NCBI GenBank assembly: GCA_963832165.1
Contig: CAWHTE010000007.1
Coordinates: 384,001 to 448,000 of the forward strand
Reading direction: 5' to 3'
Origin: an uncultured delta proteobacterium
GTDB lineage: Bacteria > Myxococcota_A > UBA9160 > SMWR01
DNA length: 64,000 bases
The notes under the pieces are model-generated. The model was given only the letters and a program-made list of their open reading frames with translations, searched no databases and was not told the DNA's origin. Positions 14,158 through 53,589 of the stretch are shown here, piece by piece. The position numbers were made by a program, and so were the translations under genes. Within the stretch, counting starts at the first letter, position 1. Each line of letters opens with the position of its first letter.

Positions 14158-15441
14158 ATGCATTCCGCGCCCCAACCCCTCCCCGAGCGATCCGGCGCGT
14201 TCGGCGGCTTCATCGGCCCGCGCACGCTCGTGTCGCTGGTCGAGAGTGCGTTGCCGTGGCTGCTCGCGCCCGCGTTCGCGCAGCGCGCGGGAGTCGCGGC
14301 GCCGAGCGGGGATGGGTCGCTGCACGAGCTCGCCGCGGGTCCGCTCGGCTGGTGGCGCGTGCTGCGCGCAGTGCAAGGAGGCCGACAGAGTCGGCCGACG
14401 CGCAGCGAGCCGGAGGCGAGCGAAGGCGCGCCCCTGCAAGATTGGCTCGCACCGAGCGAAGTGCCCACCCCGGAGCAGCGCACCGACTACTTCGCGCTCT
14501 GCTTGGCCGCGCACTTCGCGAGCGCGGCGAGCTTCGTGCCCACCGACGTCGATACCAAGATCCGCCGCGCGCTCTGGCGCGAGGCCGTGGGCACGCCCGA
14601 GCTCGCGCGCATGCGCGCGCTCGCGCTCGGGCTGTCGGCGTGGGACGTCTCGGCGGTGTCGGCGCGCCAGGTGCAGACTCCCGAGGGCGTCGTCTCGGGC
14701 CACGATGGCGAGCGGCTCTCGGTGCTATGCGGCGGGCTCATCGCATCGCTGCGTGCGCAAGAGAGCGAGGGCGCGGCCGAGCTCGAGGCCGCGATCGAGG
14801 ACGAGCTCGCGCGCGAGGCGCGCGCGTTCGCGGAGCTCGAGCGTGCGCGGGGGTCCGAGCTCGATCTGGTGCGGCTCGCCGGCGTGCTCACGCACAACGC
14901 GGGCGACGTGATGCAGGGTCTCGCGGGCGCGGGAAAGGCGAGCCTGCTCGTGGAGCGCTTCGGCGACCTCGCGCGCACGGGTGTCTCGCGCTACGGCGGG
15001 GCGTTCGGGCGCGCGGCCGCTCTCTACCGCGCGCTGCTCGCGAGCGAGGGCCACCGCAACTACCCGCTGCGCGGGCCGCGCGCGCTCCGGCGCGTTCCCG
15101 AGCTGTTGCTGCCGATCGCGCCGCTGCTCGACGACTGGGGCGAGCGGATCGCGCGCGTGCGCGAGCTCACCGCGCGCGAGCGCGCCGAGATCGTGGAGGC
15201 GCTCGCGCTGGGCTGCACGAAGCTTCCGGGCCAGCAGGGCTACTACCGCGCGCTCGCGGGCTACGCGCGCGCGAGCGCGCGCGGGCTCGAGGCGCCCGAG
15301 ATCGCCGAGCACGTCGCGGCGTCGACGCGCCGCCTGCTGCGCGCGAGCGACCTGCGCCAGAAGATCGCCGTGCCGCGCGCGTCGTTCGAGTCGCAGCTCG
15401 CCAAGCGCGCGCGCTCTCTCCTCGCTACGCGGACTTCTTGA
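14158..15441 (+). CDS. Hypothetical helical protein with an in-frame repeat insertion (start uncertain)
   Basis: Long ORF with host-like codon usage; conserved-looking blocks FVPTDVDTKIR, HNAGD, EGHRNYPLR. Confidence 0.75.
   Translation: MHSAPQPLPERSGAFGGFIGPRTLVSLVESALPWLLAPAFAQRAGVAAPSGDGSLHELAAGPLGWWRVLRAVQGGRQSRPTRSEPEASEGAPLQDWLAPSEVPTPEQRTDYFALCLAAHFASAASFVPTDVDTKIRRALWREAVGTPELARMRALALGLSAWDVSAVSARQVQTPEGVVSGHDGERLSVLCGGLIASLRAQESEGAAELEAAIEDELAREARAFAELERARGSELDLVRLAGVLTHNAGDVMQGLAGAGKASLLVERFGDLARTGVSRYGGAFGRAAALYRALLASEGHRNYPLRGPRALRRVPELLLPIAPLLDDWGERIARVRELTARERAEIVEALALGCTKLPGQQGYYRALAGYARASARGLEAPEIAEHVAASTRRLLRASDLRQKIAVPRASFESQLAKRARSLLATRTS
14373..14438 (+). repeat. Hairpin repeat family, C-type copy (in-frame)
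   Basis: GCAAGGAGGCCGACAGAGTCGGCCGACGCGCAGCGAGCCGGAGGCGAGCGAAGGCGCGCCCCTGCA; near-identical to the reverse complement of 16016-16080. Confidence 0.9.
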
Positions 15442-15991
15442 CGCGCGACGCCTTGAGCCGCGCCTTGCCGTCCTCGATCTGGACGCGGAACGAGAACTCG
15501 GCCGATTCGCCGAACTTGGTGCGCAGCGCGTCGCGCTGCTCGGCGATGATCGACTCGAGCTTCTCGCGCGTGAGGCCGCTCACGCTCTCGCCGCACGTGC
15601 GCCGCGCGTCGACGTAGCTCTGGTAGAGATCGCCGGGGGTGGGCGCTGACACGGGAGGCACGGCCGCCGACTCGCCGGGCGCTTGCTGCTCGTGCAGCCG
15701 GGCCTTGAAGCGGTGCCGCTCGTAGGTACCCGCCTCGATCTTGCGCAACGTCTCGTCCCATTGGCGGCGGTACGCCTGGTAGCGCGAGCAGATGCTCGTG
15801 AACTTGAAGCGCGCCCCGGTGTTCTTGATCGCGGTGCTCGTGAGCTCGATCACGGCCTTGTTGATCTCGCTGCGCAGCTGCACCGGCTCGCGCGGTCGGT
15901 TGCCGAGGAAGTACTGGTCGTAGTCGCGTTTGAGCTGCGCGAGCTTGAACTCGAGCATGCGCAGATCGTCGTCGATCGCCTCGGTGGACAC
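15425..15991 (-). CDS. MXAN_5187 C-terminal-domain-like protein
   Basis: LKRDYDQYFLG..PREP, LYQSYVDARR.CGE, FRVQIEDGKARLKA; family recognised from memory. Confidence 0.65.
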   Translation of the reverse strand: MSTEAIDDDLRMLEFKLAQLKRDYDQYFLGNRPREPVQLRSEINKAVIELTSTAIKNTGARFKFTSICSRYQAYRRQWDETLRKIEAGTYERHRFKARLHEQQAPGESAAVPPVSAPTPGDLYQSYVDARRTCGESVSGLTREKLESIIAEQRDALRTKFGESAEFSFRVQIEDGKARLKASRVKKSA

Positions 15992-16015
15992 GCGCGGCTC
16001 TCCCCGGCCATCCCG

Positions 16016-17955
<1,940 letters not shown>

Positions 17956-17959
17956 CGTG

Positions 17960-19039
17960 CTAGGCGTCGCCGCGCGCGACTTCGGGGCGCAGCAGCGGAG
18001 CTGCGCCACGTAGCCGGAATGCGGCGGCCTCGGCTCCACCCGCCGTCTCGCCGGGCTGGAGCGGATTGCCGTCCACCTCGAAGCCGGCCTCGCGGATCAT
18101 GCGGTAGGTGTCGGCGAGCGAGTCGCCGCGCGTGGTGAGATAGCCCTCGACGAAGAGCGAGTTCGCGGGCCAGAGCGCGAACGCCTCCATGCCGCGCAGG
18201 TGCCCTTCGCGCCCGCCTGCGGCGCGGATCTCCGCGCGCGGGTTCACGAGCCGCATCAGGCACAGCGCGCGCAGGCAGCGCTCGGGCGTGAGCGAGCCGT
18301 CCGACTGCACGGGGTTGCCGTCGATCGGGATCAGGAAGTTCACGGGGATCGACGGCACCTCGAGCTCGCGCAGCTTGAAGCTCACCTCGACGACATCGGC
18401 GCTCTGCTCGCCCATGCCGAGGATCAGTCCGCTGCACGCCTCGATGCCGCACTTCTTCGCGGCGACCAGCGTGCGCACGCGGTCGGCGTAGGTATGGGTC
18501 GAGCAGATCTCGCCGTAGTGCGACTCGCTCGTGTTCAGGTTGTGGTTCAGGCGGTCGAGACCCGCGTCGGCGAGGATGCGCGCGTGCTCCTCCTCGAGCA
18601 GACCCACCGAGAGGCACACCCCGATCGGGTAGCGCTGCTTCACCTCGCGGATCAGTTCGGCGAGCCGGTGCGTCATCGCGAGCGTCGGACCGCGCCCCGA
18701 CATCACCATGCAGTAGCGCGTCGCCCCCGCGCGTGCGGCGGCCTCGGCGCCCGCGAGGATCTCCTCGCGATCCTTCATCGCGTACTTGCGGATCGCCGAC
18801 TTCGAGTCGCGCGACTGCGAGCAGTAGCCGCAGTCTTCGGGGCACAGCCCGTTCTGCACGTTGTTGAGCACGTGCACCATCACGCGGCGGCCGAAGTGCT
18901 GCTCGCGCGGCGCGAACGCGGCGTGCAGCAGCGGCAGCAGCGCGACGTCGGGCCCGTCCAGGATCCAGTGGGCCTCGCTCTCGGAGGGCGGCTCGTCCGC
19001 CAGCGCGCGCGCCGCGAGTCGTTCGTACTTCTCGAACAT
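17960..19039 (-). CDS. bioB: Biotin synthase
   Basis: Radical SAM CPEDCGYC, NHNLNTS, PVNFLIPI, GYLTT; GAGGAG SD before the ATG at 19039. Confidence 0.96.
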   Translation of the reverse strand: MFEKYERLAARALADEPPSESEAHWILDGPDVALLPLLHAAFAPREQHFGRRVMVHVLNNVQNGLCPEDCGYCSQSRDSKSAIRKYAMKDREEILAGAEAAARAGATRYCMVMSGRGPTLAMTHRLAELIREVKQRYPIGVCLSVGLLEEEHARILADAGLDRLNHNLNTSESHYGEICSTHTYADRVRTLVAAKKCGIEACSGLILGMGEQSADVVEVSFKLRELEVPSIPVNFLIPIDGNPVQSDGSLTPERCLRALCLMRLVNPRAEIRAAGGREGHLRGMEAFALWPANSLFVEGYLTTRGDSLADTYRMIREAGFEVDGNPLQPGETAGGAEAAAFRLRGAAPLLRPEVARGDA

Positions 19040-19065
19040 GGGGGGTCTCCTCGGGTGGCGGGCCA

Positions 19066-19119
19066 ACCCTAGAGAGGGCACCCGACCCCTGTCAACCGCA
19101 GTCCCGATCGCGGTTTACA
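19066..19119 (-). promoter_or_regulatory. bioB promoter overlapped by a BirA operator
   Basis: Minus-strand TTGACA (19095-19090)-N18-TAGGGT (19071-19066); BirA box TGTCAACC-N14-GGTTTACA at 19090-19119. Confidence 0.85.
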
Positions 19120-19175
19120 GCGCCGCATCGCGCATTGCGCGGCTACTCTCGCGCGCAAGCTGTCCGGCGCGCAGT

Positions 19176-19213
19176 GCAAGTTTCGCGCAGCGAGCCGAAG
19201 GCGAGCGAAGACC
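19176..19213 (+). repeat. Hairpin repeat family, A-type copy in the radA 5' region
   Basis: GCAAGTTTCGCGCAGCGAGCCGAAGGCGAGCGAAGACC; identical to 19565-19602 and to the reverse complement of 54495-54532. Confidence 0.92.
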
Positions 19214-19225
19214 GAAGGGCATTGA

Positions 19226-20653
19226 ATGGGGCGCAGCCGCAGCGTGTACGCGTGCACCGAATGCGGCGCTCAGCAGCCGCGCTGGCTGGGGCGCTGCCCC
19301 GAATGCGGTGCGTGGTCGACTCTCGTGGAGGAGCGCGCGGTCGCGCCCGCCGAGCCGCGTGAGCTGATCGCGCGCGAGCCGCAGAGCGCCAAGCCGCGCC
19401 GGCTCGCCGAGATCGATGCGGACGCCGTGCCGCGCCTCGCGACCGGGATCGCCGAGCTCGACCGCGTGCTCGGCGGCGGCATCGTGCCCGGATCGGTCGT
19501 GTTGCTCGCAGGCGAGCCCGGAGTCGGCAAGTCGACGCTCGCGCTGCAGCTCGCGGCGGGCGCCGCAAGTTTCGCGCAGCGAGCCGAAGGCGAGCGAAGA
19601 CCATCAGGTGGGAGCAGCCGGCCCGTGCTCTACGTCGCGGGCGAGGAGAGTCCGGAGCAGATCCGGCTGCGCGCGGATCGCCTCGCGTCGCTGCCCGAGG
19701 CGCTCGTCGTGCTGCCCGAGACCTGCGTCGAGGCGCTCGCGGATCCGTGGCGCGAGATGCAGCCCTCGCTCGTGATCGTCGACTCGGTGCAGACGCTGCG
19801 CAGCGAGCGCATCGAGTCGGCGCCGGGCTCGGTCGCGCAGGTGCGCGAGTGCGCGGCGCTGCTCGCGGCGACCGCGAAGGCGCACGGCACCGCGCTCGTG
19901 CTGGTCGGCCACGTCAACAAGGAGGGCGCGATCGCGGGACCGCGCGTGCTCGAGCATCTCGTCGACGTCGTGCTCCAGCTCGAGGGCGACGGCTTCCACG
20001 CGTTCCGCCTGCTGCGCGCGCACAAGAACCGCTTCGGCTCGACGCAGGAGATCGGCGTGTTCCACATGAGCGGCGTGGGACTCGAGGCCGTGCCGAACCC
20101 GAGCGAGCTGTTCCTCGCCGAGCGCCGCGCGGGCGCACCCGGGTCGTGCATCGTGCCGTGGCTCGAGGGCAGTCGTCCGATGCTCGTGGAGATCCAGGCG
20201 CTCGTGGCGCCCGCGGGCTACGGCACCGCGCGCCGCACCGCGATCGGCGTCGATGACGCGCGGCTCGCGCTGCTGCTCGCGGTGCTCGACCGGCGCGCGC
20301 ACGTCGACCTGCTCTCGCGCGACGTCTACGTGAACGCGGTCGGCGGTGTGCGGATCCGAGAGCCCGGCGCCGATCTCGCGCTTGCGCTCGCGCTCGCGTC
20401 GAGCCGGCTCGATCTCGCGCTGCCCGCCGACGTGGCCGCGTGCGGCGAGGTCGGTCTCGGCGGCGAGATCCGGCGCGTGGCGCGGCTCGATGCGCGCGTT
20501 GCCGAGGCGGCGCGGCTCGGCTTCCGGCGCCTGCTCGTACCGGCCGGAGCGCAGGCCGCGCTCGCGTCGCCGCCGGGCGCCCTGCTCGTGCCCGTGAACG
20601 ATCTCGCCGAGGCCGTGGCGTGGCTCTCGTCCACGGCCGTTCACACGTCGTGA
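19226..20653 (+). CDS. radA: DNA repair protein RadA/Sms with a ~15-aa repeat-derived insertion
   Basis: CTECG...CPECG Zn finger, GEPGVGKST, KNRFG, Lon-like C-terminal domain. Confidence 0.97.
   Translation: MGRSRSVYACTECGAQQPRWLGRCPECGAWSTLVEERAVAPAEPRELIAREPQSAKPRRLAEIDADAVPRLATGIAELDRVLGGGIVPGSVVLLAGEPGVGKSTLALQLAAGAASFAQRAEGERRPSGGSSRPVLYVAGEESPEQIRLRADRLASLPEALVVLPETCVEALADPWREMQPSLVIVDSVQTLRSERIESAPGSVAQVRECAALLAATAKAHGTALVLVGHVNKEGAIAGPRVLEHLVDVVLQLEGDGFHAFRLLRAHKNRFGSTQEIGVFHMSGVGLEAVPNPSELFLAERRAGAPGSCIVPWLEGSRPMLVEIQALVAPAGYGTARRTAIGVDDARLALLLAVLDRRAHVDLLSRDVYVNAVGGVRIREPGADLALALALASSRLDLALPADVAACGEVGLGGEIRRVARLDARVAEAARLGFRRLLVPAGAQAALASPPGALLVPVNDLAEAVAWLSSTAVHTS
19565..19611 (+). 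repeat. Hairpin repeat family, A-type copy in-frame in radA
   Basis: GCAAGTTTCGCGCAGCGAGCCGAAGGCGAGCGAAGACCATCAGGTGG, translated as [15 protein letters not shown]. Confidence 0.92.
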
Positions 20654-20702
20654 GCCCGCTAGTTAACCATTCGAATTTGCTGATCTTTTCAGCATTTTCC
20701 CT

Positions 20703-20732
20703 TTGACAGCGCGAGGCGAGTCGGGCTAGGGT
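20703..20732 (+). promoter_or_regulatory. Putative sigma70 promoter (possibly for a leaderless or short-leader mRNA)
   Basis: TTGACA-N18-TAGGGT (same hexamers and spacing as the bioB promoter), 9 nt before the ATG at 20742. Confidence 0.6.
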
Positions 20733-20741
20733 TTCGCAGCG

Positions 20742-21767
20742 ATGACGAACCGCTCGCCCGCCGCCGGCCCGGCCGGCTATGCAGCCGCGCTCGAGCGGCT
20801 CACCGAAGATCTCGCGCTCGTCGAGAGCGCGATGCGCGAGCAGCTCGTGTCGGCGAGCGAGGTGCTCTCGGCGCTCGGCGATCACGTGCTCGCCTCGGGC
20901 GGCAAGCGCATGCGGCCCGCGCTGCTCCTGCTCGCGGCCGAGCTCTGCAACTACACGGGGCCCCGGCGCATCCAGATCGCCGCGGCGGTCGAGCTGCTCC
21001 ACACCGCGACGCTGCTGCACGACGACGTGGTCGATCTCTCCGTGCTGCGCCGCGGCCGCCCCTCCGCAAACGCGCTCTGGGGCAACCGGCGCGCCGTGCT
21101 CGCGGGCGACTTCTTCTACGCGCGCGCCTCGTCGATGATCGTCGAAGACGGCGACCTCGACATCCTGTGGATCTTCGCCGACACGATCCGCAGCATGGCG
21201 GAGGGCGAGCTGCTCCAGCTCCAGCGCAGCTTCGATCCCTCGGTCACCGAGGCGCACTACTTCCAGGTGATCGAGCGCAAGAGCGCGGTGCTCCTGTCTG
21301 CGGCCTGCGAGTCGGGCGGGATCCTCGGCGGGGTCACGCGCGCCGAGCGGCGCCGGCTCGCCGAGTACGGGCGCGAGCTCGGGCTCGCGTTCCAGCTGCG
21401 CGACGACGCGCTCGACTACGAGGATCGCGAGGCCGATCTCGGCAAGCGGCCCTACGACGATCTGCGCGAGGGCAAGGTGACGCTGCCGCTCCTGCTCGCG
21501 CTCAAGCGCTGCTCGGCCGCCGAGCGCGAGGCAGTGGCCTCGCTGCTCAAGGCGGTGTCGCTGGTCCCCGACCCGGACGCTGCGGTCGCGCTCGATCTCT
21601 CGCCCGCGATCGAAGTGGTGCAGCGCTACCGCGGCGTCGAAGACACCGTGCGCCGCGCCGAGGAGCACGCGCGCCGCGCGCGCAACGCGATCGCTCCCTT
21701 CCCCGATGGAGGCGCTCAGAGCGACCTGCTCGCCGCTGCCGACTTCGCCGTCGCGCGCGATCGCTAG
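20742..21767 (+). CDS. Trans-polyprenyl diphosphate synthase (IspB-like)
   Basis: GGKRMRP, LHDDVVD...RRG, FQLRDD.LDY, GK...DL.EGK.TLP. Confidence 0.93.
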   Translation: MTNRSPAAGPAGYAAALERLTEDLALVESAMREQLVSASEVLSALGDHVLASGGKRMRPALLLLAAELCNYTGPRRIQIAAAVELLHTATLLHDDVVDLSVLRRGRPSANALWGNRRAVLAGDFFYARASSMIVEDGDLDILWIFADTIRSMAEGELLQLQRSFDPSVTEAHYFQVIERKSAVLLSAACESGGILGGVTRAERRRLAEYGRELGLAFQLRDDALDYEDREADLGKRPYDDLREGKVTLPLLLALKRCSAAEREAVASLLKAVSLVPDPDAAVALDLSPAIEVVQRYRGVEDTVRRAEEHARRARNAIAPFPDGGAQSDLLAAADFAVARDR

Positions 21768-21827
21768 CAAAGCGCCGCGAAGCGGCGCACGCAGCGAGCC
21801 GAAGGCGAGCGGAGATCGAACAGGTGG
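21767..21827 (+). repeat. Hairpin repeat family, B-type intergenic copy
   Basis: GCAAAGCGCCGCGAAGCGGCGCACGCAGCGAGCCGAAGGCGAGCGGAGATCGAACAGGTGG. Confidence 0.88.
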
Positions 21828-21868
21828 ATTCAACCTCTCATCCCCGATCGGTCCCGGGAGCTACTCCC

Positions 21869-25096: not shown

Positions 25097-31067
<5,971 letters not shown>

Positions 31068-31098
31068 GAATCGGGGCCAGAAGAAATCGGGGTAGCGC

Positions 31099-32688
31099 GT
31101 GAGTGAAGACGAACGCATACAGATCCTGTTGGTCGATGATCAACCCGGAAAGCTGCTCTCCTACGAGGCGATGCTTTCCGACCTCGACGCGACGCTGATC
31201 CGCGCGACGTCGGCGAGCGAGGCGCTCGACCAGCTGCTGCGGGCGGACATCGCAGTCGTGCTGATCGACGTCTGCATGCCGGGCCTCGACGGCTTCGAGC
31301 TCGCGGCGATGATCCGCGGGCACCCGCGCTACCGGAACACCGCGATCATCCTGGTGTCGGCCGTGCTCGTGAACGACGTCTACCGCCTCAAGGGCTATCA
31401 CGCGGGCGCGATGGACTACGTCGGCGTTCCGGTCGTCCCCGAGATCCTGCGCGCGAAGGTGGGGGTGTTCGCGGACCTGTACCGCAAGAGCCGACGCCTC
31501 GAGCGCATGAACGAGGAGCTCGAGCGCCGCGTCGAGGAGCGCACCGCGGCGCTGCGCGCGAGCGATCGGCGCAAGGACGAGTTCCTCGCGATCCTCGCGC
31601 ACGAGCTGCGCAACCCGCTCGCGCCGATGCTCAACTCGATCCATCTGCTGCGATCCGAAGCAGAGCCCGTGCAGCGCAGCCATTCGGTCAACGTGATCGA
31701 TCGCCAGCTCGGCCACCTCGTGCGCCTCGTCGACGATCTGCTCGACGTCTCCCGGATCACGACCGGCAAGCTCGAGCTGCGCTCGGAGTCCGTGAAGCTG
31801 ATCGAGGCGCTCGAGCACGCGGTCGAGCGCGTCGAGCCCGAGATCAAGCACAAGAGTCAGCAGCTCTACGTCGAGGTGGAGGACGACGGACTCGTCGTCG
31901 AAGGCGACGAGATGCGGCTCACGCAGATCTTCTCGAACCTGCTCCAGAACGCGAGCAAGTTCACAGAGCGCGGCGGGAACATCGCGATTCGCGCGGGCCG
32001 GTCGGGCAGCGAGGTCGAGGTCGCGGTGCGCGACAGCGGCGACGGCATCGAGCCCGCAATGCTCGAGAAGATCTACGACATCTTCTCGCAGGGCGATCGC
32101 ACGCTCGAGCGGCGCCACAGCGGTCTCGGGATCGGCCTCACGATCGTCAAGCGCCTCGTCGAGATGCACCACGGCACCGTCGTGGCGCGGAGCGAGGGCC
32201 CCGGCACTGGCAGCGAGTTCACGGTTCGCCTGCCGCTGCCCGCGGTGTCCGAGAGCGTGAGCGAGCAGCGTGACGAGCCGATCGATTGGGAGCCCTCGGC
32301 GCAGCGCGTGCTCGTGGTCGACGACAATCACGACAGTCTCGAGAGCCTCTCGGCGCTGCTCGAGCTGCAGGGCAACGAGGTGCGCACGGCCTGCGACGGA
32401 GTGCGCGCGGTGGCGGAGGCGGAGGCGTTCCGCCCGGACGTCGTGCTGCTCGACGTCGGTATGCCGAACATGAACGGTTACGACGCGTGCCGGCTGATCC
32501 GCGCCCAGGAGTGGGGCCGCAACATGCTGCTCGTGGCGCTCACGGGCTGGGGCCAGGAGGAGGACCGCGCGCGCAGCCAGGCGGCCGGCTTCGATCACCA
32601 CTTCGTGAAGCCGGTCGATCCGAAGGTGCTGATCCGCTACCTCGGCCGGCACTCCGCGAAGCGCGAAGAGCTGCGCGCCGGCCGCTAG
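31099..32688 (+). CDS. REC-HisKA-HATPase-REC hybrid sensor kinase
   Basis: [28 protein letters not shown]-terminal VLVVDD...DVGMP. Confidence 0.93.
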
Positions 32689-44796: not shown

Positions 44797-45819
44797 ATGA
44801 CCCACCCCGATGGTCTTCGCTCGCCTCCCGCTCGCTGCGCGAAACTTGCGCTCGACCGGATCGGCACCTCGTTCGAGACCCAATACACATGGCGCTACGA
44901 GCCCTCGCAGGCGGGCCTGCGCGAGCTCTACGAGAAGGCCAAGCGCGAGCAGTGGAACGCCACGACGCAGCTCGCCTGGGACACACCCGTCGATCCCGAG
45001 AGCGAGATCATCCCGGCCGCGTTCAACCCGCTCGCCGACTACGGCCCATTCCTGCGCTGCTCGGCGAAGGAACAGGCCCACGTGCGCCACGCGATGCTCG
45101 CGTGGCAGCTGTCGCAATTCTTGCACGGCGAGCAAGGCGCGCTCATGACCGCCTCGCAGCTCGTCTCGTGCGTGCCCTGGATCGACGCCAAGTACTACGC
45201 CGCGACCCAGGCGATGGACGAGGCGCGCCACGTCGAGGTGTTCGCGCGTTACCTGCGCGAGAAGCTCGAGTGGGAGTTCCCGATCAACGAGAACCTGCGC
45301 AAGCTGCTCGACGCGATCCTGACCGACTCACGCTGGGACCTGAAGTACCTCGGTATGCAGATCCTGGTCGAAGGGCTCGCGATGGCCGCGTTCGGAAATC
45401 TGTACCAGATCGCCGACGACGAGCTGCTCGTGGAGCTGATCCACTACGTGATGCGCGACGAGTCGCGCCATGTCGCGTTCGGCGTGCTGTCGCTCGACGG
45501 CTACTACCGCGAGATGTCCGCGAGCGAGCTGCGCGACCGCGAGGACTTCATCATCGAGGCGAGCGTGATGATGCGCGACCGCCTGATCGGCGACGACGTC
45601 GCCGACGTGATGGGCTTCGACCGCGCCGAGGTGCGCGAGCGCATCCTCGCCTCGCCGATCATGTCGGCATTCCGCCAGCAGCTGTTCGCGCGCGTGGTGC
45701 CGAACGTGAAACGGCTGGGTCTGCTCACGCCGCGCGTGCGCCACGCCTACGAGCAGCTCGGCGTGCTCCAGTTCGAGCACGCCGACCCCGAGGCGCAGGA
45801 CCGCGCGCTCGGGTTGTAG
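44797..45819 (+). CDS. Ferritin-like diiron protein (AurF-like)
   Basis: QFLHGEQGAL, DEARHVE, QILVEG, DESRHV. Confidence 0.85.
   Translation: MTHPDGLRSPPARCAKLALDRIGTSFETQYTWRYEPSQAGLRELYEKAKREQWNATTQLAWDTPVDPESEIIPAAFNPLADYGPFLRCSAKEQAHVRHAMLAWQLSQFLHGEQGALMTASQLVSCVPWIDAKYYAATQAMDEARHVEVFARYLREKLEWEFPINENLRKLLDAILTDSRWDLKYLGMQILVEGLAMAAFGNLYQIADDELLVELIHYVMRDESRHVAFGVLSLDGYYREMSASELRDREDFIIEASVMMRDRLIGDDVADVMGFDRAEVRERILASPIMSAFRQQLFARVVPNVKRLGLLTPRVRHAYEQLGVLQFEHADPEAQDRALGL
44802..44849 (-). repeat. Hairpin repeat family, A-type copy forming the N-terminal codons of the ferritin-like ORF
   Basis: Reverse complement = GCAAGTTTCGCGCAGCGAGCGGGAGGCGAGCGAAGACCATCGGGGTGG. Confidence 0.88.
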
Positions 45820-45829
45820 CGCCGCTGCT

Positions 45830-46282
45830 CTACTGCGATTTGCCCGACTTCACCGTGAGCACGGGGCACGGCGCCTTCTGCACCACGCGCTCGGCGATGC
45901 TGCCGAGCAGCAGGTGCTTGATGCCCGAGAGGCCATGCGTGCCGATCACGACCAGGTCCACGTCGAGGCGCGCGGCCTCTTCGACGATCACCGTGGCGGC
46001 ATAGCCCTCGCACACGGCGGTATCCACCATGAGACCGCGCGCGAGCAGCGGCTTGGCGTGCTCCGCGAGCTGCTGCTCGGCCTCCGACCGCACGCTGGCC
46101 CAGAAGTCCGGGGGCAGGTAGGCGCCCTCGAGCTGCTGGAACTCCACGGGCAGATGGTAGGCGTGGAGCAGGATCACCTTGCTCGAGTGCTCCTCGGCCA
46201 GGTGCGCAGCCCATTCGAGCAGCGCCGGCGTGTTCTCCGAGAAGTCGAGCGGTACCAGGATGCGCTCGATGTTGATCGGCAT
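45830..46282 (-). CDS. Universal stress protein
   Basis: ILVPLDFS, VVIGTHG, LLGSIAERVVQKAPCPVL. Confidence 0.93.
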   Translation of the reverse strand: MPINIERILVPLDFSENTPALLEWAAHLAEEHSSKVILLHAYHLPVEFQQLEGAYLPPDFWASVRSEAEQQLAEHAKPLLARGLMVDTAVCEGYAATVIVEEAARLDVDLVVIGTHGLSGIKHLLLGSIAERVVQKAPCPVLTVKSGKSQ

Positions 46283-46369
46283 TCCTACAGGCTGCCCCTA
46301 CCTGCGCGCGGACACAACCCCGTGGGATCGATGGGGTGCCGGGCCAGAAAGCGCTCCAGGAACGCGCAT

Positions 46370-46398
46370 TTGACGCGCGGACGGCGCGATCCTACCGT
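46370..46398 (+). promoter_or_regulatory. Putative tRNA promoter
   Basis: TTGACG-N17-TACCGT, about 20 nt before the tRNA. Confidence 0.55.
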
Positions 46399-46418
46399 CC
46401 CGATCCCAATCGGTTTTC

Positions 46419-46494
46419 GGGGCCGTAGCTCAACTGGGAGAGCGCTGCGTTCGCAACGCAGAGGTTGGCGGTTCGATCCCGCTCGGCTCCACCA
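46419..46494 (+). tRNA. tRNA-Ala(CGC)
   Basis: GGGGCCG acceptor stem with G3:U70; anticodon stem CTGCG-TT CGC AA-CGCAG; GTTCGAT T-loop; encoded CCA. Confidence 0.97.
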
Positions 46495-46512
46495 CTGATC
46501 CTTGTGCGCCCC

Positions 46513-46926
46513 CTAGCGCGCGCCGAGCGCCCGCGCCGCGCGCGCGTAGTCCTTCTGCTTCACCCAGAGGATCATCCCGTAGCGCCCGTGCCCCGCGGTG
46601 ACGGCATCCGCGGCTGTGACGTTGATCCCGGCCTTCGCGAGCTTCTTCAGCTGCGAGTGACACGCGCCCACCGCATCGCTGCTCTGCACGAGGAACGCCT
46701 TCTTCGCGCCGGACAGCCGCCAGCCCTGCTGCTTCGCGACGCGCTTCACGCCTGCGAGACCGTCGGCGACGAAGTCGAGCTGTGCCTTGCCGCCGCGCGT
46801 CGGAAAGCCCGTGAAAGCGAGCAGGTTCACCTTCGCCTTGCGCAGCGCTTTGAGCGCCGCGACCGCTTCGCCCGGGCGCCCCGCCCTCACCACCGTGTAG
46901 CAGTAGTCGACCTTTCGAACCGGCAT
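46513..46926 (-). CDS. Small ACT-domain-like protein
   Basis: Two ACT-like halves (RPG....L..L.KAKVNL; D.VG....L.KLAKAGINV); AAGGAGG SD. Confidence 0.65.
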   Translation of the reverse strand: MPVRKVDYCYTVVRAGRPGEAVAALKALRKAKVNLLAFTGFPTRGGKAQLDFVADGLAGVKRVAKQQGWRLSGAKKAFLVQSSDAVGACHSQLKKLAKAGINVTAADAVTAGHGRYGMILWVKQKDYARAARALGAR

Positions 46927-46947
46927 AGCATCCCTCCTTGCTGTGAC

Positions 46948-46986
46948 GGCGGGATCCGCTCGCTTCGCTCGCTTCTCCCGCCCTAC
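46948..46986 (-). repeat. GTAG-type REP enclosing the family core hairpin
   Basis: Reverse complement = GTAG GGCGGGA GAA GCGAGC-GAA-GCGAGC GGA TCCCGCC; its TAG is the stop of the PPOX gene. Confidence 0.75.
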
Positions 46987-47450
46987 GGCGAAATATATGC
47001 GACGGCTGCCTCGGAAGCGCACCAGCTGCGCTGTGCGGTGACACCGATACGCAACAGCAGCGCCTCGGGACCGAGCACGGGGACGCGCGCGTACTGGGGG
47101 TATTTCCGCCGCAGCGCCGCGAGCGCGGCCGTCTCTTCGGCGCCCGCGTGATCCGGCGGCGCACTTCGGATCTGCGCCTCGCCGTCGACGCGCAGCCACC
47201 AGAGCAGCGTCCAGTCTTCGTCGTAGTGCGAGAAGAGCAGCGACACACGCGGGTCGCGCCGGATGTGGCGGATCCGCGCGAGCTCAGAGCCGCGCTTCGG
47301 CTTGCCGTCGATCGGCGACCAGAGCGCGTCCCCAACGCGCGCGAACACGATCGGCACCGCGTGCGGCTGGCCATCTTCGGAGATCGTCGCGAGCGTCGCG
47401 ACCGGCCACCGCTCGAGGATGCGCGACGTGGTCTCGTCGGGAAGCTCCAT
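46983..47450 (-). CDS. PPOX-class (pyridoxamine 5'-phosphate oxidase-like, putative F420-dependent) protein
   Basis: VATLAT...PHAVPIVF, D.KPK, DPRVSLL..HYDEDWT.LWW.RVDG, KYPQY. Confidence 0.82.
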   Translation of the reverse strand: MELPDETTSRILERWPVATLATISEDGQPHAVPIVFARVGDALWSPIDGKPKRGSELARIRHIRRDPRVSLLFSHYDEDWTLLWWLRVDGEAQIRSAPPDHAGAEETAALAALRRKYPQYARVPVLGPEALLLRIGVTAQRSWCASEAAVAYISP

Positions 47451-47482
47451 GCTGCGCCATCATACGCGCTCGGAGTGTTGCC

Positions 47483-47761
47483 GTGGCCCAACCCGTGATC
47501 GAGATCGTCTACTGCACGCGCTGCCGGTGGCTCCTGCGCGCCGGTTGGATGGCACAGGAACTGCTCTCCACCTTCGAGCAGGAGCTCGGCGGAGTCACGC
47601 TCGTGCCGAACGCGGAGGGCGGCGTGTTCGAGGTACGGCTCGCGGGCCAGACGATCTTCTCCCGCGCGCAGGCGGGCGGGTTCCCCGAGATCAAGCAGCT
47701 CAAACAGCTCGTGCGCGACCGCGTCGCCCCGGGCCGCGACCTTGGGCACGTGGATCGGTAG
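47483..47761 (+). CDS. SelT/SelW/SelH (Rdx) family protein
   Basis: IVYCTRCRWLLRAGWMAQELLSTF, GGFPE. Confidence 0.9.
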   Translation: MAQPVIEIVYCTRCRWLLRAGWMAQELLSTFEQELGGVTLVPNAEGGVFEVRLAGQTIFSRAQAGGFPEIKQLKQLVRDRVAPGRDLGHVDR

Positions 47762-47790
47762 TCTCTCCGCGGGGGGAGCAGGAGCATCCA

Positions 47791-48549
47791 ATGGACGACT
47801 ACCGCGAGCAGATGGCGGGCGACACGGGCGGGCGCACGGTCGAGCAGGAGCGCGCGCAGCGCAAGATCGAGGTGGCGCTCGGCTACCGGCTGCTCGCCGC
47901 GAACAAGTGGGGCGACGCGGGCGACGGCCACATCAGCGCGCGCGATCCGGAGCGCCGCGACTGCTTCTGGCTCTTGCGCTACGGCCCCTCCTACCACGAA
48001 GCGCGCGTCTCGGACCTCGTGCTCGTGGGCCCCAACGGCGAGCTCGTCGAGGGCAACGGGATCATCAACGTCGCCGCCTACTACATTCATCACCCGATCC
48101 TCATGGCGCGCCCCGATGCGGTGAGCGCTACGCACGTGCATACGGGCTGGGGTACGCCCTTCTCCGCCGAGGTGCGCATGTTCCAGCCGATCACGCAGGA
48201 GTCGTGCGTCTTCTTCGAGGACCACGCGCTGTTCGACGACGAGGAGGTGCAGGTCCAGAGCGTGGATGCGGGCAAGCGGATCGCCGACACGCTCGGCGGG
48301 AACCGCGCGATCATCCTGCGCAACCACGGCCTGCTCACGGTGGGCGAGAGTGTCGCGGACGCGGTCGGCAGCTTCGTGCAGATGGAGCGCGTGGCCGAGG
48401 CGCACCTGAAGGCGCGCGACGCGGTGCCGATCTCCGCGGAGGCGGCGCGCTTCGCGAAGGCCGATCTCGTGCGTTTCGGTGCCGGGCGCGTGTCGTTCGC
48501 GGCGATGGTCGCGCGGCACATCGGCGATCCGTCGGTGGTCATGCGGTGA
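47791..48549 (+). CDS. Class II aldolase/adducin family protein
   Basis: GHISARDP, AYYIH, HVHT, LRNHGLLTVG. Confidence 0.88.
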   Translation: MDDYREQMAGDTGGRTVEQERAQRKIEVALGYRLLAANKWGDAGDGHISARDPERRDCFWLLRYGPSYHEARVSDLVLVGPNGELVEGNGIINVAAYYIHHPILMARPDAVSATHVHTGWGTPFSAEVRMFQPITQESCVFFEDHALFDDEEVQVQSVDAGKRIADTLGGNRAIILRNHGLLTVGESVADAVGSFVQMERVAEAHLKARDAVPISAEAARFAKADLVRFGAGRVSFAAMVARHIGDPSVVMR

Positions 48550-48608
48550 CCCTGTAACCGCGATCCCGTGCACGGCATCCACCTGAAGCCACCGCTGCGG
48601 AGAAACAC

Positions 48609-48914
48609 ATGGTCGTCGTCACGTTTCGCAATCGGTTCAATCCCGACATCGACGAGGCGGAGTACGGCCAGCGCGCCGGAAAGCTCTTCGAGATCGTGTC
48701 CGCGATGCCGGGCTTCCGCTCGATCCGCGACTACGCGGCCGAGGACGGCGAGCGACTGTCGGTGATCGAGTTCGATTCGCTCGAATCTCTCGCGACGTGG
48801 CGCGACCATCCGGAGCACCGCGTCGCCCAGGAGCTCGGCAAGCAGCGCTACTACGCCGAGTACCACCTCCAGATCTGCGAGCTCGTGCGCGAGTCGCACA
48901 AGCAGCCGGCCTAG
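48609..48914 (+). CDS. Antibiotic biosynthesis monooxygenase (ABM) family protein
   Basis: MPGF, W..HPEHR.AQ..G...YY. Confidence 0.85.
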   Translation: MVVVTFRNRFNPDIDEAEYGQRAGKLFEIVSAMPGFRSIRDYAAEDGERLSVIEFDSLESLATWRDHPEHRVAQELGKQRYYAEYHLQICELVRESHKQPA

Positions 48915-48921
48915 CAGCGCG

Positions 48922-50991
48922 TCAGGTCGCGAGCCCCGGGAAGCACGACTTCACGCCGAGATCGTTCCCCTTCTTGATCTCCTGGTACTTCTTCCAGAAG
49001 TCGGCGTCGATGCGGTGGCCGACCTTGCCCTTCCCGAACGAGCGCCGGTAGCGGTCGAGCTGGCGCGGGCCCGCGTTGTAGGCGGCGTAGGTGGCGCGCG
49101 CGAGATCGTCGAAGTTCTTGCGCACCTTGTCCTCGCGCTTCTTGATCGCGTAGTCGAACAGGTAGTGGTGGAGGATTTCGCTGCCCGCCGACGCGTTGTA
49201 CTTGGTGCTGCTGCGCAGCGACTTCACGTCGTAGAAGCCGCGCCACACGTGCGGGTTCACCTGCATGATGCCGAGCGCACCCGCCGACGACGTGAGCGGC
49301 TGCACCGCACCCTTCTTGCGCACGAACTGGCGCCAGCAGCTCTCCTGCCACGCGGTCGTGAGCACGAGGTTGCGGAACAGCTTCGCATAGCTGCCCGGCA
49401 CCACCTTCTTGCGCTGCGTGCGCAGCGCCGTGGCGCCGAGAAGGTCGCCCACCTGCGGCAGGTACACGGCGAGCTCTTCGCGCGTGGGGATCCACTTGTC
49501 GAGGCTCTTCGCGATCGGTCCCGCGACGAGCAGGATCTGGAAGCGCGGTGAGCGATCGAAGAACGACTGCGGCGGCGGTGGCGCGTCGGGCGCGGGCGGC
49601 GGCGACGGCGGCTCGGGAGCGGGAGCTTCGGGAGCGGGAGCTTCGGGAGCGGGTACTTCGGGAGCGGGTACTTCGGGCGGAGCCTCTGGAGCCGGCTCGG
49701 GCGCGGCTTCGGCTTCGGGCGCAGCCTCGGGCGGCGCTTCCGCGGGCTCGACGCTGCGAGTGCTCTCGCCCTCGGGCGCCATCTCGTCTGCGGGCGTCTC
49801 CTCGGGCTCCGGCTCCTCGAGCGGCGGTCCGAACCCGAACAGGTCGCGCAGCTCGGTGTCGATCGCCTCGCTGTACGCGGTCGGGTCCGAGAGCGGTGAG
49901 GGCTCGATCATGCGCGCCATTCGGCGCAGCCCGTCGGTGGTGAGCTCGACGCCGTAGTCGGGCCCGAGCTGCTCGAGCGCGCCGAATGCGTCGGCCGCGG
50001 CGATCAGGCTCAGGTAGTGCAGAGCGCTCTGGCCGGGCAGGTGCGTGAGCTGGCGCAGGATCGGCGCGAGGCGGCTCCAGGTCGAGAGGAACAGCGGCTT
50101 CACGGGATCCGCGCCGCTCGGCTCGGTCGAGACCAGGATCAGGTCGATGTCCTGGCGCGCGTCGAGCAGCAGCGCGCGCAGCTCATCGCGCACCTCGTCG
50201 CCGGCGTCCCTGGAGCTGTGCTTCACGACGAAGGTCAGGAAGGCGTCCCAGCTTTTCCATGCGCTCTCCCAGCGCGCGTGCTCCGCGGGCGTGAGCGCGG
50301 GCTCGGGGGTCTGGGGAGCCGCAGCACTCGGCTTGGTCGGGGGGGGCACGTCGAGCCGCACGCGCAGCGCGATGCCCGGCGTCGAGACCGCCACGCTCAC
50401 GAGCGCGAACGAATCGATCAGCTTCTTCAGGCGCTCGGTGCCGGAGCCCGGGAACAAGACGGGCAGGAAGGTCTTGAGCTCCGTGACCGGCTGATGGAGA
50501 TCGATGCGGATCGTCTCGAGATGCGGGTGCACCTGTGATCGCACCCAATCCCAGAGCGCACCCGAGAAGCGCTTCACCCCGTCGGGGTCGAGCAGCTGGG
50601 ATTCCACGACGCGGAACTCGACGATCGGCAGCTTCGGGTGCAGACGCGCCTCGAGCGCGGCATCGAGGATCCCCGTGCGCCGCGTGGCGTTCAGACACCA
50701 GGTCCCCATCGGTGCGCCGAGCTTCGCTTCGAAGTCCGCCACCACGTGGAGCCTTCCCCCGCGCTCGGCGAGCTTCGGGTGGGAGAGCACGATCTCGTTG
50801 CATTGGCTCGGGTCGCGCCATACGCGCGTTCTCTCGTTGGGCTGGTCGAACAGCGCCTCGACCATGCGCTGACGCACGAACGCGAGGTCGAGCTGGATCG
50901 GGAACTCGACCACGCGCGCGCTCGCGGGCGCCGCCGCGAGCAACGCGAGCGCGACCGCCCGGCAGATCCCGGCGAGCCGTCTCGCGATCAC
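48922..50991 (-). CDS. Secreted protein with a C-terminal lytic transglycosylase (SLT) domain and a Pro/Ala/Glu linker
   Basis: Signal peptide; AWQES, GIMQV, AAYNAG motifs. Confidence 0.82.
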   Translation of the reverse strand: MIARRLAGICRAVALALLAAAPASARVVEFPIQLDLAFVRQRMVEALFDQPNERTRVWRDPSQCNEIVLSHPKLAERGGRLHVVADFEAKLGAPMGTWCLNATRRTGILDAALEARLHPKLPIVEFRVVESQLLDPDGVKRFSGALWDWVRSQVHPHLETIRIDLHQPVTELKTFLPVLFPGSGTERLKKLIDSFALVSVAVSTPGIALRVRLDVPPPTKPSAAAPQTPEPALTPAEHARWESAWKSWDAFLTFVVKHSSRDAGDEVRDELRALLLDARQDIDLILVSTEPSGADPVKPLFLSTWSRLAPILRQLTHLPGQSALHYLSLIAAADAFGALEQLGPDYGVELTTDGLRRMARMIEPSPLSDPTAYSEAIDTELRDLFGFGPPLEEPEPEETPADEMAPEGESTRSVEPAEAPPEAAPEAEAAPEPAPEAPPEVPAPEVPAPEAPAPEAPAPEPPSPPPAPDAPPPPQSFFDRSPRFQILLVAGPIAKSLDKWIPTREELAVYLPQVGDLLGATALRTQRKKVVPGSYAKLFRNLVLTTAWQESCWRQFVRKKGAVQPLTSSAGALGIMQVNPHVWRGFYDVKSLRSSTKYNASAGSEILHHYLFDYAIKKREDKVRKNFDDLARATYAAYNAGPRQLDRYRRSFGKGKVGHRIDADFWKKYQEIKKGNDLGVKSCFPGLAT
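49608..49680 (-). repeat. 15-nt tandem coding repeat (APEA/VP)
   Basis: TCGGGAGCGGG(A/T)(G/A)CT repeated about 4-5 times. Confidence 0.75.
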
Positions 50992-52271
50992 TTCGGCGCA
51001 CCGAAGCGCGCGCGGAAGTCGGGGAGGCGCACGCTGAACGAGTCCTTCGCCACGAAGGCCGCGTCGTCGAGATCGGGCGCTTCGTGCGGCTTGTACCACG
51101 CCGCGTAGGTAGCGAGCTCGTCTGCGAACGCGCGGTAGTGCGCGGAGTAGGTGCGCACGCGCAGCGTCGGGACCTCGGCGGCGGTGTCGAAGGTGAGCAG
51201 GCGCACCCAGCCGTCGCCGATCGGAACGGGTTTGCCGCGCACGAGCGGCACACCCGCATCGAGCGAGGCCTGCCCGCGATCCTGATAGTCCGCGAGCAGC
51301 TGGAGCACCTCGTGTCCGGCCGCATTCTTGTCCGTGCGCGTCGCGACGCCGTGATGGTGTCCGCACAGCACCAGGAAGATCTGATCGTTCGGCTGGATCA
51401 GCTCCTTCCAGAGGTCTTCGGCGCTGTTGTGGGTCGAGTCGGCCGCCGCGAGGTCGACGATCGGGTTGGCGCGCCGCTCGCCCTTCGCGTTCAGGTAGTC
51501 GTGAGTCGTGATGATCGTGGGCTTGCCGGGGTGCTTCGCGATCACCGACTTCGCCCATTTGATCACGGCATCGGTGGGCGACATCTCGAGCGCGATGTGC
51601 AGGAAGTCGTAGCCGCCGGCCGAGAACGTCTGGGCACTGCTCGACCCGCCCGTGTGGCTCGCGATGTACCACGGCTCGCGCGCGTTGCGCTGTGCACCGA
51701 AGATGGAGCGGAAGCCGTCGAGCCCGCCGACGTGGAGCATGCCGAGCGTCTTCGCAGTCATGTCGATCTGGCGCGCGTCGGACACGGGCGGATAGCGCGC
51801 GTCGCTCCACATCGCGTCGTAGTCGTGGTTGCCCGGAGCCACTCCGAACGCGATCTTGGTCTCGGCGATCAGCTTGTAGCCCGAGAATGCCATCGGCATC
51901 TCGACGGAACGGGTCTTGTTCGTCACCTCGAGCTCGTTCGCGAACCAGGGATTCTCGATCGCCTTGAAGCCGCGCTTCGCGTGGAACTCGTCCATGGTCT
52001 TCGTCTGGTGCTGCCAGACGTCGCCGACCGCGGCCACGAACACGACGTCGCCTCCGCGCAACTTCGCACGGCCGGCGATCCAGCGCATCTCGGCCAGGAA
52101 CAGATCGCTCGCATCGAACGGGAACCCGCTCGCGCGCTGGTGCTTGTAGTCGATCATGTTCTGGGTGTCGGGCACCACCGCGATCGAGAACGCGCCGCCC
52201 TGCGCGCTGGCGAGGACCGGGATCGCAAAGGCAAGGACGGCGACGCGGCAGGGCCAGACGAGACGGCGCAC
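50988..52271 (-). CDS. Secreted calcineurin-like metallophosphoesterase
   Basis: PDTQ, GD, GNHD, TTH, CGHHH. Confidence 0.82.
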   Translation of the reverse strand: MRRLVWPCRVAVLAFAIPVLASAQGGAFSIAVVPDTQNMIDYKHQRASGFPFDASDLFLAEMRWIAGRAKLRGGDVVFVAAVGDVWQHQTKTMDEFHAKRGFKAIENPWFANELEVTNKTRSVEMPMAFSGYKLIAETKIAFGVAPGNHDYDAMWSDARYPPVSDARQIDMTAKTLGMLHVGGLDGFRSIFGAQRNAREPWYIASHTGGSSSAQTFSAGGYDFLHIALEMSPTDAVIKWAKSVIAKHPGKPTIITTHDYLNAKGERRANPIVDLAAADSTHNSAEDLWKELIQPNDQIFLVLCGHHHGVATRTDKNAAGHEVLQLLADYQDRGQASLDAGVPLVRGKPVPIGDGWVRLLTFDTAAEVPTLRVRTYSAHYRAFADELATYAAWYKPHEAPDLDDAAFVAKDSFSVRLPDFRARFGAPK

Positions 52272-52308
52272 GGGCTCAGGATATCGTTGATAGAATGGCC
52301 AGGCCCCC

Positions 52309-53589
52309 ATGCCCAACCACCCCACCCGCGACGACATCCACCTGCTCGGCCGGTCGTTCTACCTCGATCCGCACGAGCGGTTCGGCTGGATGCGCGATCA
52401 CGCGCCCGCCTACTTCGAGCCCGCGGTCGACGAGCTGGGCGGCATCTGGGGCCTCACGCGCCACGCCGACATCATGAACGCGTCGAAGACCCCGGAGCTT
52501 TTCAGCTCGGGGAAGAGCTCGCGGCCTGAGCCCGGGTCGTGGATCCCCTCGATGATCAACCTCGACGATCCGCTCCACAAACGGCGCCGCAATCTCGTGA
52601 ACCGCGGCTTCACGGTGCGGCGCGTCGCGGATCACGAGGCGAGGCTGCACGCGCTCTGCGACGAGCTGATCGACGCGGTCTCGCCGCGCGGCGAGTGCGA
52701 CTTCGTGGCCGACATCGCGCGCTGGGTGCCGATGGTGGTGATCGGCGACATGCTGGGCGTGGCGCCCGAAGACCGCGGGATGCTCCTGCGCTGGTCCGAC
52801 GAGATGCTCGGCGGCGGCGAGGTGGCTGCGATCGAGGATCCGCAGGAGCGCCGCGCGCGCAGCGTCGCGATCGTCGACGAGTACATGCGCTACGCGCAGG
52901 GCGTGCTCGCCGACCGCCGAGGTCGGGCCCCCACCGACGATCTCATGAGCATCCTCGTCCACTCCGATCTCGACGGCGATCGGCTCAGCGAGGAGGAGAT
53001 CCTCCAGGAGAGCCTGCTGATCCTGATCGGCGGCGACGAGACCACGCGCCACGTGATGACGGGCGGCCTGCGCGCGCTGCTCGAGCATCCGGAACAGAAG
53101 CGGAAGCTGATCCAGAACCCCGCGCTGCTGCCGACCGCGGTCGAGGAGATGCTGCGCTGGGTCTCGCCGATCCAGAACATGAACCGCACGCTCACGCGCG
53201 ACGTGGAGCTGCACGGCGAGAAGCTGCGCGAGGGGGAGCGCGTGCTGCTGCTCTATCCGGCCGGCAACCGCGACGAGCGCGCGTTCCCGGAGCCCGACCG
53301 CTTCGACGTCGAGCGCACCCCGAACGACCACGTCGCGTTCGGCGGCTTCGGCACCCACTTCTGCCTTGGCGCGAGCCTCGCGCGGCTCGAGCTGCGCGTG
53401 CTGTTCGAGCACGTGCTGCGGCGCCTGCCCGACATCGAGCTCGCGAGCGAAGATCTGCCGCTGCGCCCGAGCAACTTCATCGTCGGCATCGAGGAGATGC
53501 CGGTGCGCTTCACGCCGCAAGCGCCGCGAAGCGGCGCGCGCAGCGAGGCGAAGCCGAGCGAAGCGCGGGCGCCCGCGAAGGGAGGTTAG
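52309..53589 (+). CDS. Cytochrome P450 (CYP142/CYP125-like); C-terminal tail derived from a repeat
   Basis: GGDETT, EEMLR, HVAFGGFGTHFCLG. Confidence 0.94.
   Translation: MPNHPTRDDIHLLGRSFYLDPHERFGWMRDHAPAYFEPAVDELGGIWGLTRHADIMNASKTPELFSSGKSSRPEPGSWIPSMINLDDPLHKRRRNLVNRGFTVRRVADHEARLHALCDELIDAVSPRGECDFVADIARWVPMVVIGDMLGVAPEDRGMLLRWSDEMLGGGEVAAIEDPQERRARSVAIVDEYMRYAQGVLADRRGRAPTDDLMSILVHSDLDGDRLSEEEILQESLLILIGGDETTRHVMTGGLRALLEHPEQKRKLIQNPALLPTAVEEMLRWVSPIQNMNRTLTRDVELHGEKLREGERVLLLYPAGNRDERAFPEPDRFDVERTPNDHVAFGGFGTHFCLGASLARLELRVLFEHVLRRLPDIELASEDLPLRPSNFIVGIEEMPVRFTPQAPRSGARSEAKPSEARAPAKGG
53517..53585 (+). repeat. Hairpin repeat family, B-type copy in-frame at the P450 3' end
   Basis: GCAAGCGCCGCGAAGCGGCGCGCGCAGCGAGGCGAAGCCGAGCGAAGCGCGGGCGCCCGCGAAGGGAGG; closely matches the inner atpG copy. 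Confidence 0.9.

Follow-up and report, generated by a model that had tools for sequence, protein, structure and literature searches.

How does a short hairpin repeat that has no transposase of its own move, and how does it enter protein-coding genes in frame? This question, which is open for Rickettsia palindromic elements (RPEs), for SMR-A repeats and for REPs without a RAYT gene, is raised by a purine-rich hairpin repeat in a 64,000-nucleotide stretch (hereafter the window) of an uncultured delta proteobacterium, C7:384001-448000 (GenBank contig CAWHTE010000007.1) within a 5.5-Mb assembly (GCA_963832165.1; 70% GC, 89% complete) whose host is known from metagenome assemblies alone. A preliminary description, made from the letters of the window, had recognized a conserved fold in this repeat, but did not see that it is mobile, self-nesting and often in frame. 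Here, we provide evidence that the repeat is a dispersed, lineage-specific mobile insertion, and we propose with moderate confidence that it represents a non-autonomous mobile element of single-stranded DNA (ssDNA), whose fold would be its recognition tag and which would be inserted into transcription-exposed strands and GNA tips by an ssDNA nuclease acting in trans.

A genome-wide search that allowed about three substitutions returned 187 core matches compared to 3 for a reversed-pattern control, and the set analyzed here comprises the 179 cores with at most one flank mismatch. The approximately 180 copies in the genome measure about 42 to 110 nt and share a common layout: a 5'-GCAA head, a variable hairpin (P1), a core of the form G-C-GCA-GC-GA-(P2)-GA-GC-GNA-G, in which P2 is a 3-bp stem with a GNA loop, and a tail. 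The core strand is 73% purine. Head and P1 are present at the 5' end of 157 of the 179 copies, with P1 appearing as a 5-nt G-NNN-C (91/157), as a Watson-Crick hairpin, or as a hairpin with tandem GA at its base, and with stems that differ freely in length and sequence. The P2 loop carries G in 170 and A in 172 of the 179 cores around a middle base that is A in 127, C in 28, G in 16 and T in 8. Modules are mosaic among copies, identical P1 modules occurring with both P2 variants (GCC/GGC and GGC/GCC stems). The short form of the element is 42 nt long, and four tandem pairs are spaced 42 apart. Tails include additional GA-rich hairpins, whereas a short 3' tail hairpin was unsupported, as its outer pair is not kept. 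The element has no terminal inverted repeats, its ends are not complementary, and Rfam gave no match in seven element loci. Elsewhere in this genome (G000), the GGC-GAA-GCC core variant stands in a different context, a four-copy tandem array with a period of about 114-120 bp (G000:C1:560639-560992).

Exact cores were found in 27 of 40 relatives at 1 to 326 copies each (reversed control, 0). In a sample of the phylum, 11 of 27 genomes of the class gave matches, as did 3 of 123 outside it, one of these three being a single unpaired match inside a gene; the GTDB core matches listed are mostly from Myxococcota or Deltaproteobacteria metagenome-assembled genomes (MAGs), with some Spirochaetales and one Longimicrobiaceae. 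The 179 cores lie in genes in sense orientation (69), in genes in antisense orientation (9) or between genes (101), where the in-gene counts are upper bounds because our purpose-made gene finder fused neighboring genes in at least two cases (L351, L352). Many copies lie directly against a start or stop codon. Among 23 host proteins tested against NCBIfam, the insertion falls inside the profile match in nine (AtpG, RadA, PurH, BirA, an MMPL transporter, two acyl-CoA synthetases, an enoyl-CoA hydratase and a glycoside hydrolase) and at a border or linker in seven, with no match in the other seven. Empty sites at the strain level were not recovered, the nearest loci reaching 90-92% at the protein level, and sequencing runs sharing at most 0.10 of words yielded no clean element-free joint among the joints listed from four runs. 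The copies in the window, and the features that they involve, are as follows.

9160..9205, plus strand: degenerate copy, ends approximate; origin of the fourth 5' module of the preliminary description
11312..12280, plus strand: atpG, host gene
11908..12014, plus strand: nested pair, inner copy (from 11926) inside the P2 tip of the outer copy, in frame within atpG; core 11945-11970, GGC-GAA-GCC
14373..14438, plus strand: copy with tandem-GA P1 (G-GA-7bp-AGA-7bp-GA-C); core 14400-14425, GCC-GGA-GGC
16016..16080, minus strand: copy with tandem-GA P1; core 16029-16054, GGC-GAA-GCC
19155..19217, plus strand: left-arm remnant (19155-19174) and 42-nt short copy (from 19176); core 19185-19210, GCC-GAA-GGC
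19226..20653, plus strand: radA (sms), host gene
19565..19611, plus strand: short copy, 42 nt plus G-rich tail, in frame in radA; core 19574-19599, GCC-GAA-GGC
21767..21828, plus strand: copy with 7-bp P1; core 21789-21814, GCC-GAA-GGC
44808..44849, minus strand: short copy with broken P2 stem; core 44815-44840
46948..46986, minus strand: GTAG-REP, its loop built from the same GA/GNA modules
53517..53585, plus strand: copy with 7-bp P1, forming the last codons of a P450 open reading frame (ORF); core 53538-53563, GGC-GAA-GCC
54465..54563, minus strand: nested pair, short inner copy (54491-54532) in the P2 tip of the outer copy; core 54498-54523, GCC-GAA-GGC; outer P1 54546-54558

All eight stems and all four paired 5' modules of the preliminary description were located in the window sequence. 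The copies behind its coordinates are real, but the positions mark element ends rather than stems, and two of them (16016 and 54486) belong to the minus strand; one 5' module is part of an outer host copy (54546-54558, minus strand), another is the degenerate copy at 9163, outside the range described, and a ninth core absent from its list (44815-44840, minus strand) has a broken stem. Comparison with orthologous sequences supports insertion: the nested pair in atpG is absent from 14 of 14 orthologous stretches, and the AtpG profile match covers residues 1-322 despite it. The radA copy, which occupies the variable-length loop following the Walker A helix, is absent from all 27 RadA orthologs parsed, and in a second ortholog set 34 of 35 stretches have no core, the remaining one giving a core match; the RadA profile match (TIGR00416) covers residues 1-464. 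Of those 27 orthologs, the one from relative G002 (L041) bears a different, related hairpin in the same RadA loop, in frame and antisense. The copy at 14373 is in frame in ORF 14158-15441, which has no NCBIfam match, and is absent from the single ortholog found; the copy at 16016 lies in sense orientation between two minus-strand genes and is absent from 5 of 5 orthologous stretches. A further copy (19155-19217) sits immediately upstream of radA, and that at 21767 begins at the G of the stop codon of a polyprenyl synthetase gene, where relative G003 has a different variant at the same site. The GTAG-REP is a family separate from the element, and serves as one insertion target elsewhere in the genome.

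Insertion follows recognizable rules. Sense copies outnumber antisense copies 120:27 overall, 51:18 between genes and 29:1 deep inside predicted genes. Nested copies (25 of 157) sit in hairpin tips of other copies or of GTAG-REPs, with 19 in P2 (0.02 expected), 3 in REPs, 2 in P1 and 1 in P3, and all 25 are co-oriented with their target, an outcome whose probability would be about 6e-5 for orientations that are independent and 80% sense. Comparison with intact REP alleles of the same genome maps the insertion point to the 5' side of the GAA loop, to within about a base. A target duplication of fixed length is absent, and the words shared at junctions exceed those of shuffled sequences only slightly (3.63 compared to 3.05) and are not of a constant length. 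Only 8 of the 101 intergenic copies lie between convergent genes, against a background of 243 of 2,332 and 105 of 201 for GTAG-REP matches.

We propose that the purine-rich strand folds as ssDNA into P1 and a core hairpin, the latter predicted to comprise a C:G pair, a GCA/GNA 3x3 loop, 2 bp, tandem sheared GA, 3 bp and a C-GNA-G triloop. This fold may be the tag by which the element is cut or copied, after which a single-stranded copy would be joined into ssDNA, mainly the non-template strand exposed by transcription; R-loop ssDNA has been named as a possible substrate for REP mobilization in excerpts of PMC3333891. Joining would prefer the 5' side of GNA triloops, with junctions varying by 1-3 nt, and the likeliest catalyst would be a candidate HUH/Y1-like ssDNA-specific nuclease or strand-transferase, supplied in trans. 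In-frame copies would survive in protein loops as short peptides, as those of RPEs do.

The fold itself was assessed by covariation. The middle P2 pair of the 179 cores is C:G in 127, G:C in 46, T:G in 1 and unpaired in 5; the search pattern also admitted C.C and G.G, each of which occurs once. Four Watson-Crick stem types account for 118, 106, 11 and 1 of 249 distinct cores from other loci, with 13 of other types. For 65 aligned cores, a covariation test gave 99.2% of cells paired and a score of 0.200, which none of 500 shuffles attained. The C-G/G-C stem swap around a conserved G-N-A loop, on which that description had relied, is present in both its parts, but the swap alone is weak evidence because both variants coexist in most listed genomes, and with identical P1 modules; it may go back to a single old event, its products since redistributed among copies. 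Pairing in P1 is the stronger covariation evidence: across 123 distinct P1s the mean paired run is 4.25, compared to 1.42 +/- 0.08 in shuffled sequences (maximum 1.69 in 1,000), in agreement with the earlier observation that the 5' modules keep pairing while their sequence changes. The 2-bp GC/GC stem (kept in 130/131) and the C:G base of the core (133/137) hardly vary, and covariation is therefore silent on the suggested extension of the stem through tandem G.A pairs. That extension is backed instead by invariance (no copy has GA/GA replaced by a Watson-Crick pair, whereas 137 retain it), by the use of tandem GA within the P1 helix of 28 copies, and by a Longimicrobiaceae MAG in which a long, nearly perfect hairpin within the 5' part of an IS3-like transposase frame has the core at its tip (L075:283-345; PF01527).

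The predicted fold favors DNA over RNA, judging from its C:G closure, GNA loops, uncorrected GA/GA and scarce G-T pairs. Out of 26 distinct P1 triloops, 25 are closed by C:G and 20 are GNA, and G-T pairs are rare: in stems of this genome that have no more than one mismatch they occupy 1 of 285 positions, and elsewhere 12 of 676. Excerpts of three studies agree with the earlier statement that GNA triloops and tandem GA are unusually stable in DNA: d(GNA) loops gain about 3 kcal/mol with C:G closure (PMC3201870), a DNA 8-mer mini-hairpin melts at 76.5 C and its RNA form at 39.0 C (PMC13037366), and tandem GA and GNA zippers form stable DNA structures (PMC11014236). The d(GCGNAGC) mini-hairpins, tandem sheared GA and GNA zippers of these reports furnish the structural vocabulary of every module, but they are physical motifs, whereas ours is a genetic element with a composite fold predicted from sequence, and would be a case of such motifs kept by selection in a genome. 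Of the preliminary suggestion that selection acts on a strand-specific DNA fold recognized by a protein, the conserved DNA-type fold is supported, but none of the candidate genes follows the repeat in its distribution; copying, rather than a host function, is the more likely object of selection on the fold.

Several results weigh against the mechanism that we propose. No mobilizer could be linked to the element among the Y1/RAYT, Ssn, DUF559, reverse transcriptase, IS110 and HNH genes searched. The genome has 12 Y1 genes, one flanked by GTAG-REPs and 11 that are REP-less paralogs; the element flanks none of the 12, and the only full core within about 1.5 kb of any lies 1.4 kb away. Six relatives that carry 58-146 copies (MAGs, 71-99% complete) gave no PF01797 match, and relative G015 has seven such matches and no copy of the element. 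Junctions are imprecise, with net gains of 41-45 nt (42 in 7/17, 44 in 6/17), unlike the precise insertion of IS605-type elements. For the 91 short copies, complementarity between the flanks does not exceed that of shuffled pairs (2.77 versus 2.83), so that most target sites are not visibly hairpins and hairpin targeting is shown for repeat targets only. Sense bias holds on both replichores (53:8 for leading-oriented and 29:10 for lagging-oriented genes), but these were inferred from weak skew that leaves 47 of 147 sites unassigned. Within the covariation test, the measure of pairs with change on both sides was equaled by 118 of 500 shuffles, and four of the six core pairs never vary, having been fixed by the search pattern. 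Nearest-neighbor DNA folding (ViennaRNA) failed to recover the full core; models of this type probably underestimate the stability of sheared GA and GNA.

Among the candidates, the RAYT-type Y1 transposase at G000:C4:535459-535773 (L002) is flanked by GTAG-REP pairs whose loops (GA-GCC-GAA-GGC-GGA, GA-GC-GCA-GC-GA or AA-GC-GGA-GC-GCA) use the vocabulary of the element, and this canonical RAYT with its GA/GNA-type GTAG-REPs could act on the element in trans. The 11 REP-less Y1 (HUH) paralogs are dispersed open frames of 231-307 aa without flanking REP arrays, located in G000 as follows.

C1:102477, C2:485363, C3:3415, C3:44062, C3:96625, C5:330641: REP-less Y1 (HUH) paralogs
C6:7737, C11:63085, C11:137213, C11:229913, C11:918011: REP-less Y1 (HUH) paralogs, continued

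This REP-less family occurs in 7 of 40 relatives, with 6-22 matches each, all in one family; six of the seven carry the element and one has none. An expanded set of these genes in the three relatives richest in copies leaves room for a link to the element, but the family was not found in G003, G004, G005, G009, G016, G029 and G037 (58-146 copies). Among 27 Y1 loci in relatives, only 3 lie within about 1.5 kb of a copy, and no locus has copies on both sides. Other enzyme classes gave no better candidate: the single GIY-YIG match in the genome lies in a 625-aa, UvrC-sized frame, DUF559 and reverse transcriptase matches are lacking in the 89%-complete genome, the five IS110 genes have no element nearby, and four proteins with an HNH motif lie 9-52 kb from the nearest copy. 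The IS3-like OrfA of L075, used as a query, was not found in this genome, and the genes bracketed by copies are ordinary host genes, both here and in 12 hand-picked close pairs from four relatives.

The failure of these searches to give a dedicated enzyme would fit an enzyme-free spread, in which host repair captures either mini-hairpin fragments resistant to nucleases or template switches at stalled hairpins, and covariation arises in part from quasi-palindrome correction. Ragged junctions with G-rich tails, free variation of P1 and mosaic modules would be expected from such a process, and template switching could produce P1 pairing without selection. Template switching should, however, perfect GA/GA, which is seen neither in the core nor in P1, and the near-invariant 26-nt core across a class and the insertion into REPs that share only a hairpin tip are left unexplained; we regard enzyme-free spread as unlikely. 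Least probable of the alternatives is a constraint at the level of RNA, with the element acting or moving within mRNA, or with the sense bias reflecting purifying selection against a C/U-rich antisense form (e.g., through Rho loading). The strong bias deep inside predicted genes, the many copies that abut start or stop codons and the general ability of tandem GA pairs to form in RNA would accord with it, but the loops are triloops closed by C:G rather than tetraloops, the P2 swap breaks an antisense C(UUCG)G reading, G-U-type pairs are scarce, and neither a reverse transcriptase nor an Rfam match was found in the searches above. The uniform co-orientation of nested copies argues against it as well, though selection may add to the sense bias.

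Less likely than enzyme-free spread, though not so improbable as the RNA constraint, is that the core is a host ssi or primosome-assembly-type ssDNA signal (for PriA, primase or SSB exclusion), the repeat being spread or kept by priming synthesis. The exact core also occurs outside this lineage: rhizobial plasmids (83 records, 54 conjugative) carry it next to ParB-like genes, in non-coding sequence that is conserved, where it may serve as a leading-region ssDNA signal, and three viral contigs contain it too; together with the IS3-like frame of L075, these occurrences favor a priming role. On the rhizobial plasmids, the cores at L251:2001-2025 and L252:2001-2025 stand amid other GA/GNA hairpins. 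At 1334+ of ColE1, which we take to be the n'-pas primosome assembly site, the same two flanks surround a 5-nt center (0/2,000 shuffles), a partial resemblance that lacks P2 and was sought only after the data had been seen. ColE1-type primosome assembly sites are described in excerpts of PMC3167613 and PMC5935869, and mini-hairpins in G4 origins and ssiA in those of PMC13037366. Against a priming signal, copy number ranges from 0 to 326 among relatives and sites are not conserved, so that the host does not need the element, and orientation tracks transcription more than replication. These occurrences led us to a broader proposal that we hold to be rather doubtful: that the GA/GNA core is a general ssDNA recognition module common to conjugative plasmids, an IS3-like element and phages, used here in a hitherto undescribed, transcription-coupled mode of single-strand insertion into GNA tips, without an HUH transposase of its own and through a host or other enzyme.

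As a non-autonomous mobile ssDNA element, the repeat would be of a kind that is already known, and is set apart from known families by its features: it does not belong to the GTAG-REPs, to SMR-A/MITE elements or to the SRM/Ssn system. RPEs are longer than its 42-110 nt. Like them, as described in excerpts of PMC3733652, it is palindromic and lies in frame in functional, intact genes (here atpG, radA, purH, birA and others) whose orthologs have no copy, but by those descriptions it differs in its strong sense bias, self-nesting and non-Watson-Crick GA/GNA motifs. GTAG-REPs/BIMEs mobilized with RAYT (TnpA-REP) are also short, high-copy, lineage-variable hairpin repeats, modular and sometimes intragenic (excerpts of PMC3733652 and PMC3333891), and in this genome they flank a Y1 gene and share their GA/GNA loop modules with the element. 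The element has no GTAG tag at its 5' foot (GCAA and P1 stand there in 157/179), no inverted dimers, no convergent-gene enrichment and no flanked Y1 gene, and it inserts into REPs. SMR-A of Haloquadratum is likewise transposase-free and inserts without target duplication into palindromes of ssDNA-type elements, but, so far as excerpts of PMC3119063 describe it, is about 110 bp long with terminal inverted repeats and targets PATEs/IS605, whereas our element, which also enters palindromes of other elements without target duplication, has no such repeats, by which SMR-A and MITEs are marked, and targets itself and REPs. The NTS/SRM hairpins of Ssn nucleases are strand-specific ssDNA hairpin repeats in hundreds of copies (excerpts of PMC11893778); the element has no CGTC-type head, and no small GIY-YIG gene is flanked by it. 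By analogy, its mode of working would resemble that of REP, RPE and SMR-A repeats, as far as excerpts of PMC3733652, PMC3333891 and PMC3119063 describe them. In the openly accessible literature, supplements aside, we found no description of this repeat family, and the repeat tables of PMC3733652 could bear on its novelty. The family offers a defined 26-nt core, natural compensatory variants, internal pairs of filled and empty targets and a strand rule that follows transcription, which is enough for the direct design of a pull-down or cleavage assay, and core proteins such as AtpG, RadA, PurH and BirA gain peptides from it.

Some copies lie in or at DNA-repair genes, namely a UvrC-like gene in two relatives (L367:1424; L371:1789,1900), mfd (G000:C7:363701) and radA (19565 in the window); REPs in or at such genes are likewise noted in excerpts of PMC3733652. 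In more distant relatives (L036, L028, L107, L015 and others), copies and short tandem arrays often stand directly beside tRNA or rRNA genes, as judged by eye. A tRNA gene at 46419-46491 is the only Rfam match in the window. About 10 coding repeats of 276 bp occupy 25419-28336, upstream of and into ORF 27779-31102; they cross several ORFs, and the reading frame may be broken. We presume that this ORF and its repeats are typical of a poly-HAMP sensor kinase.

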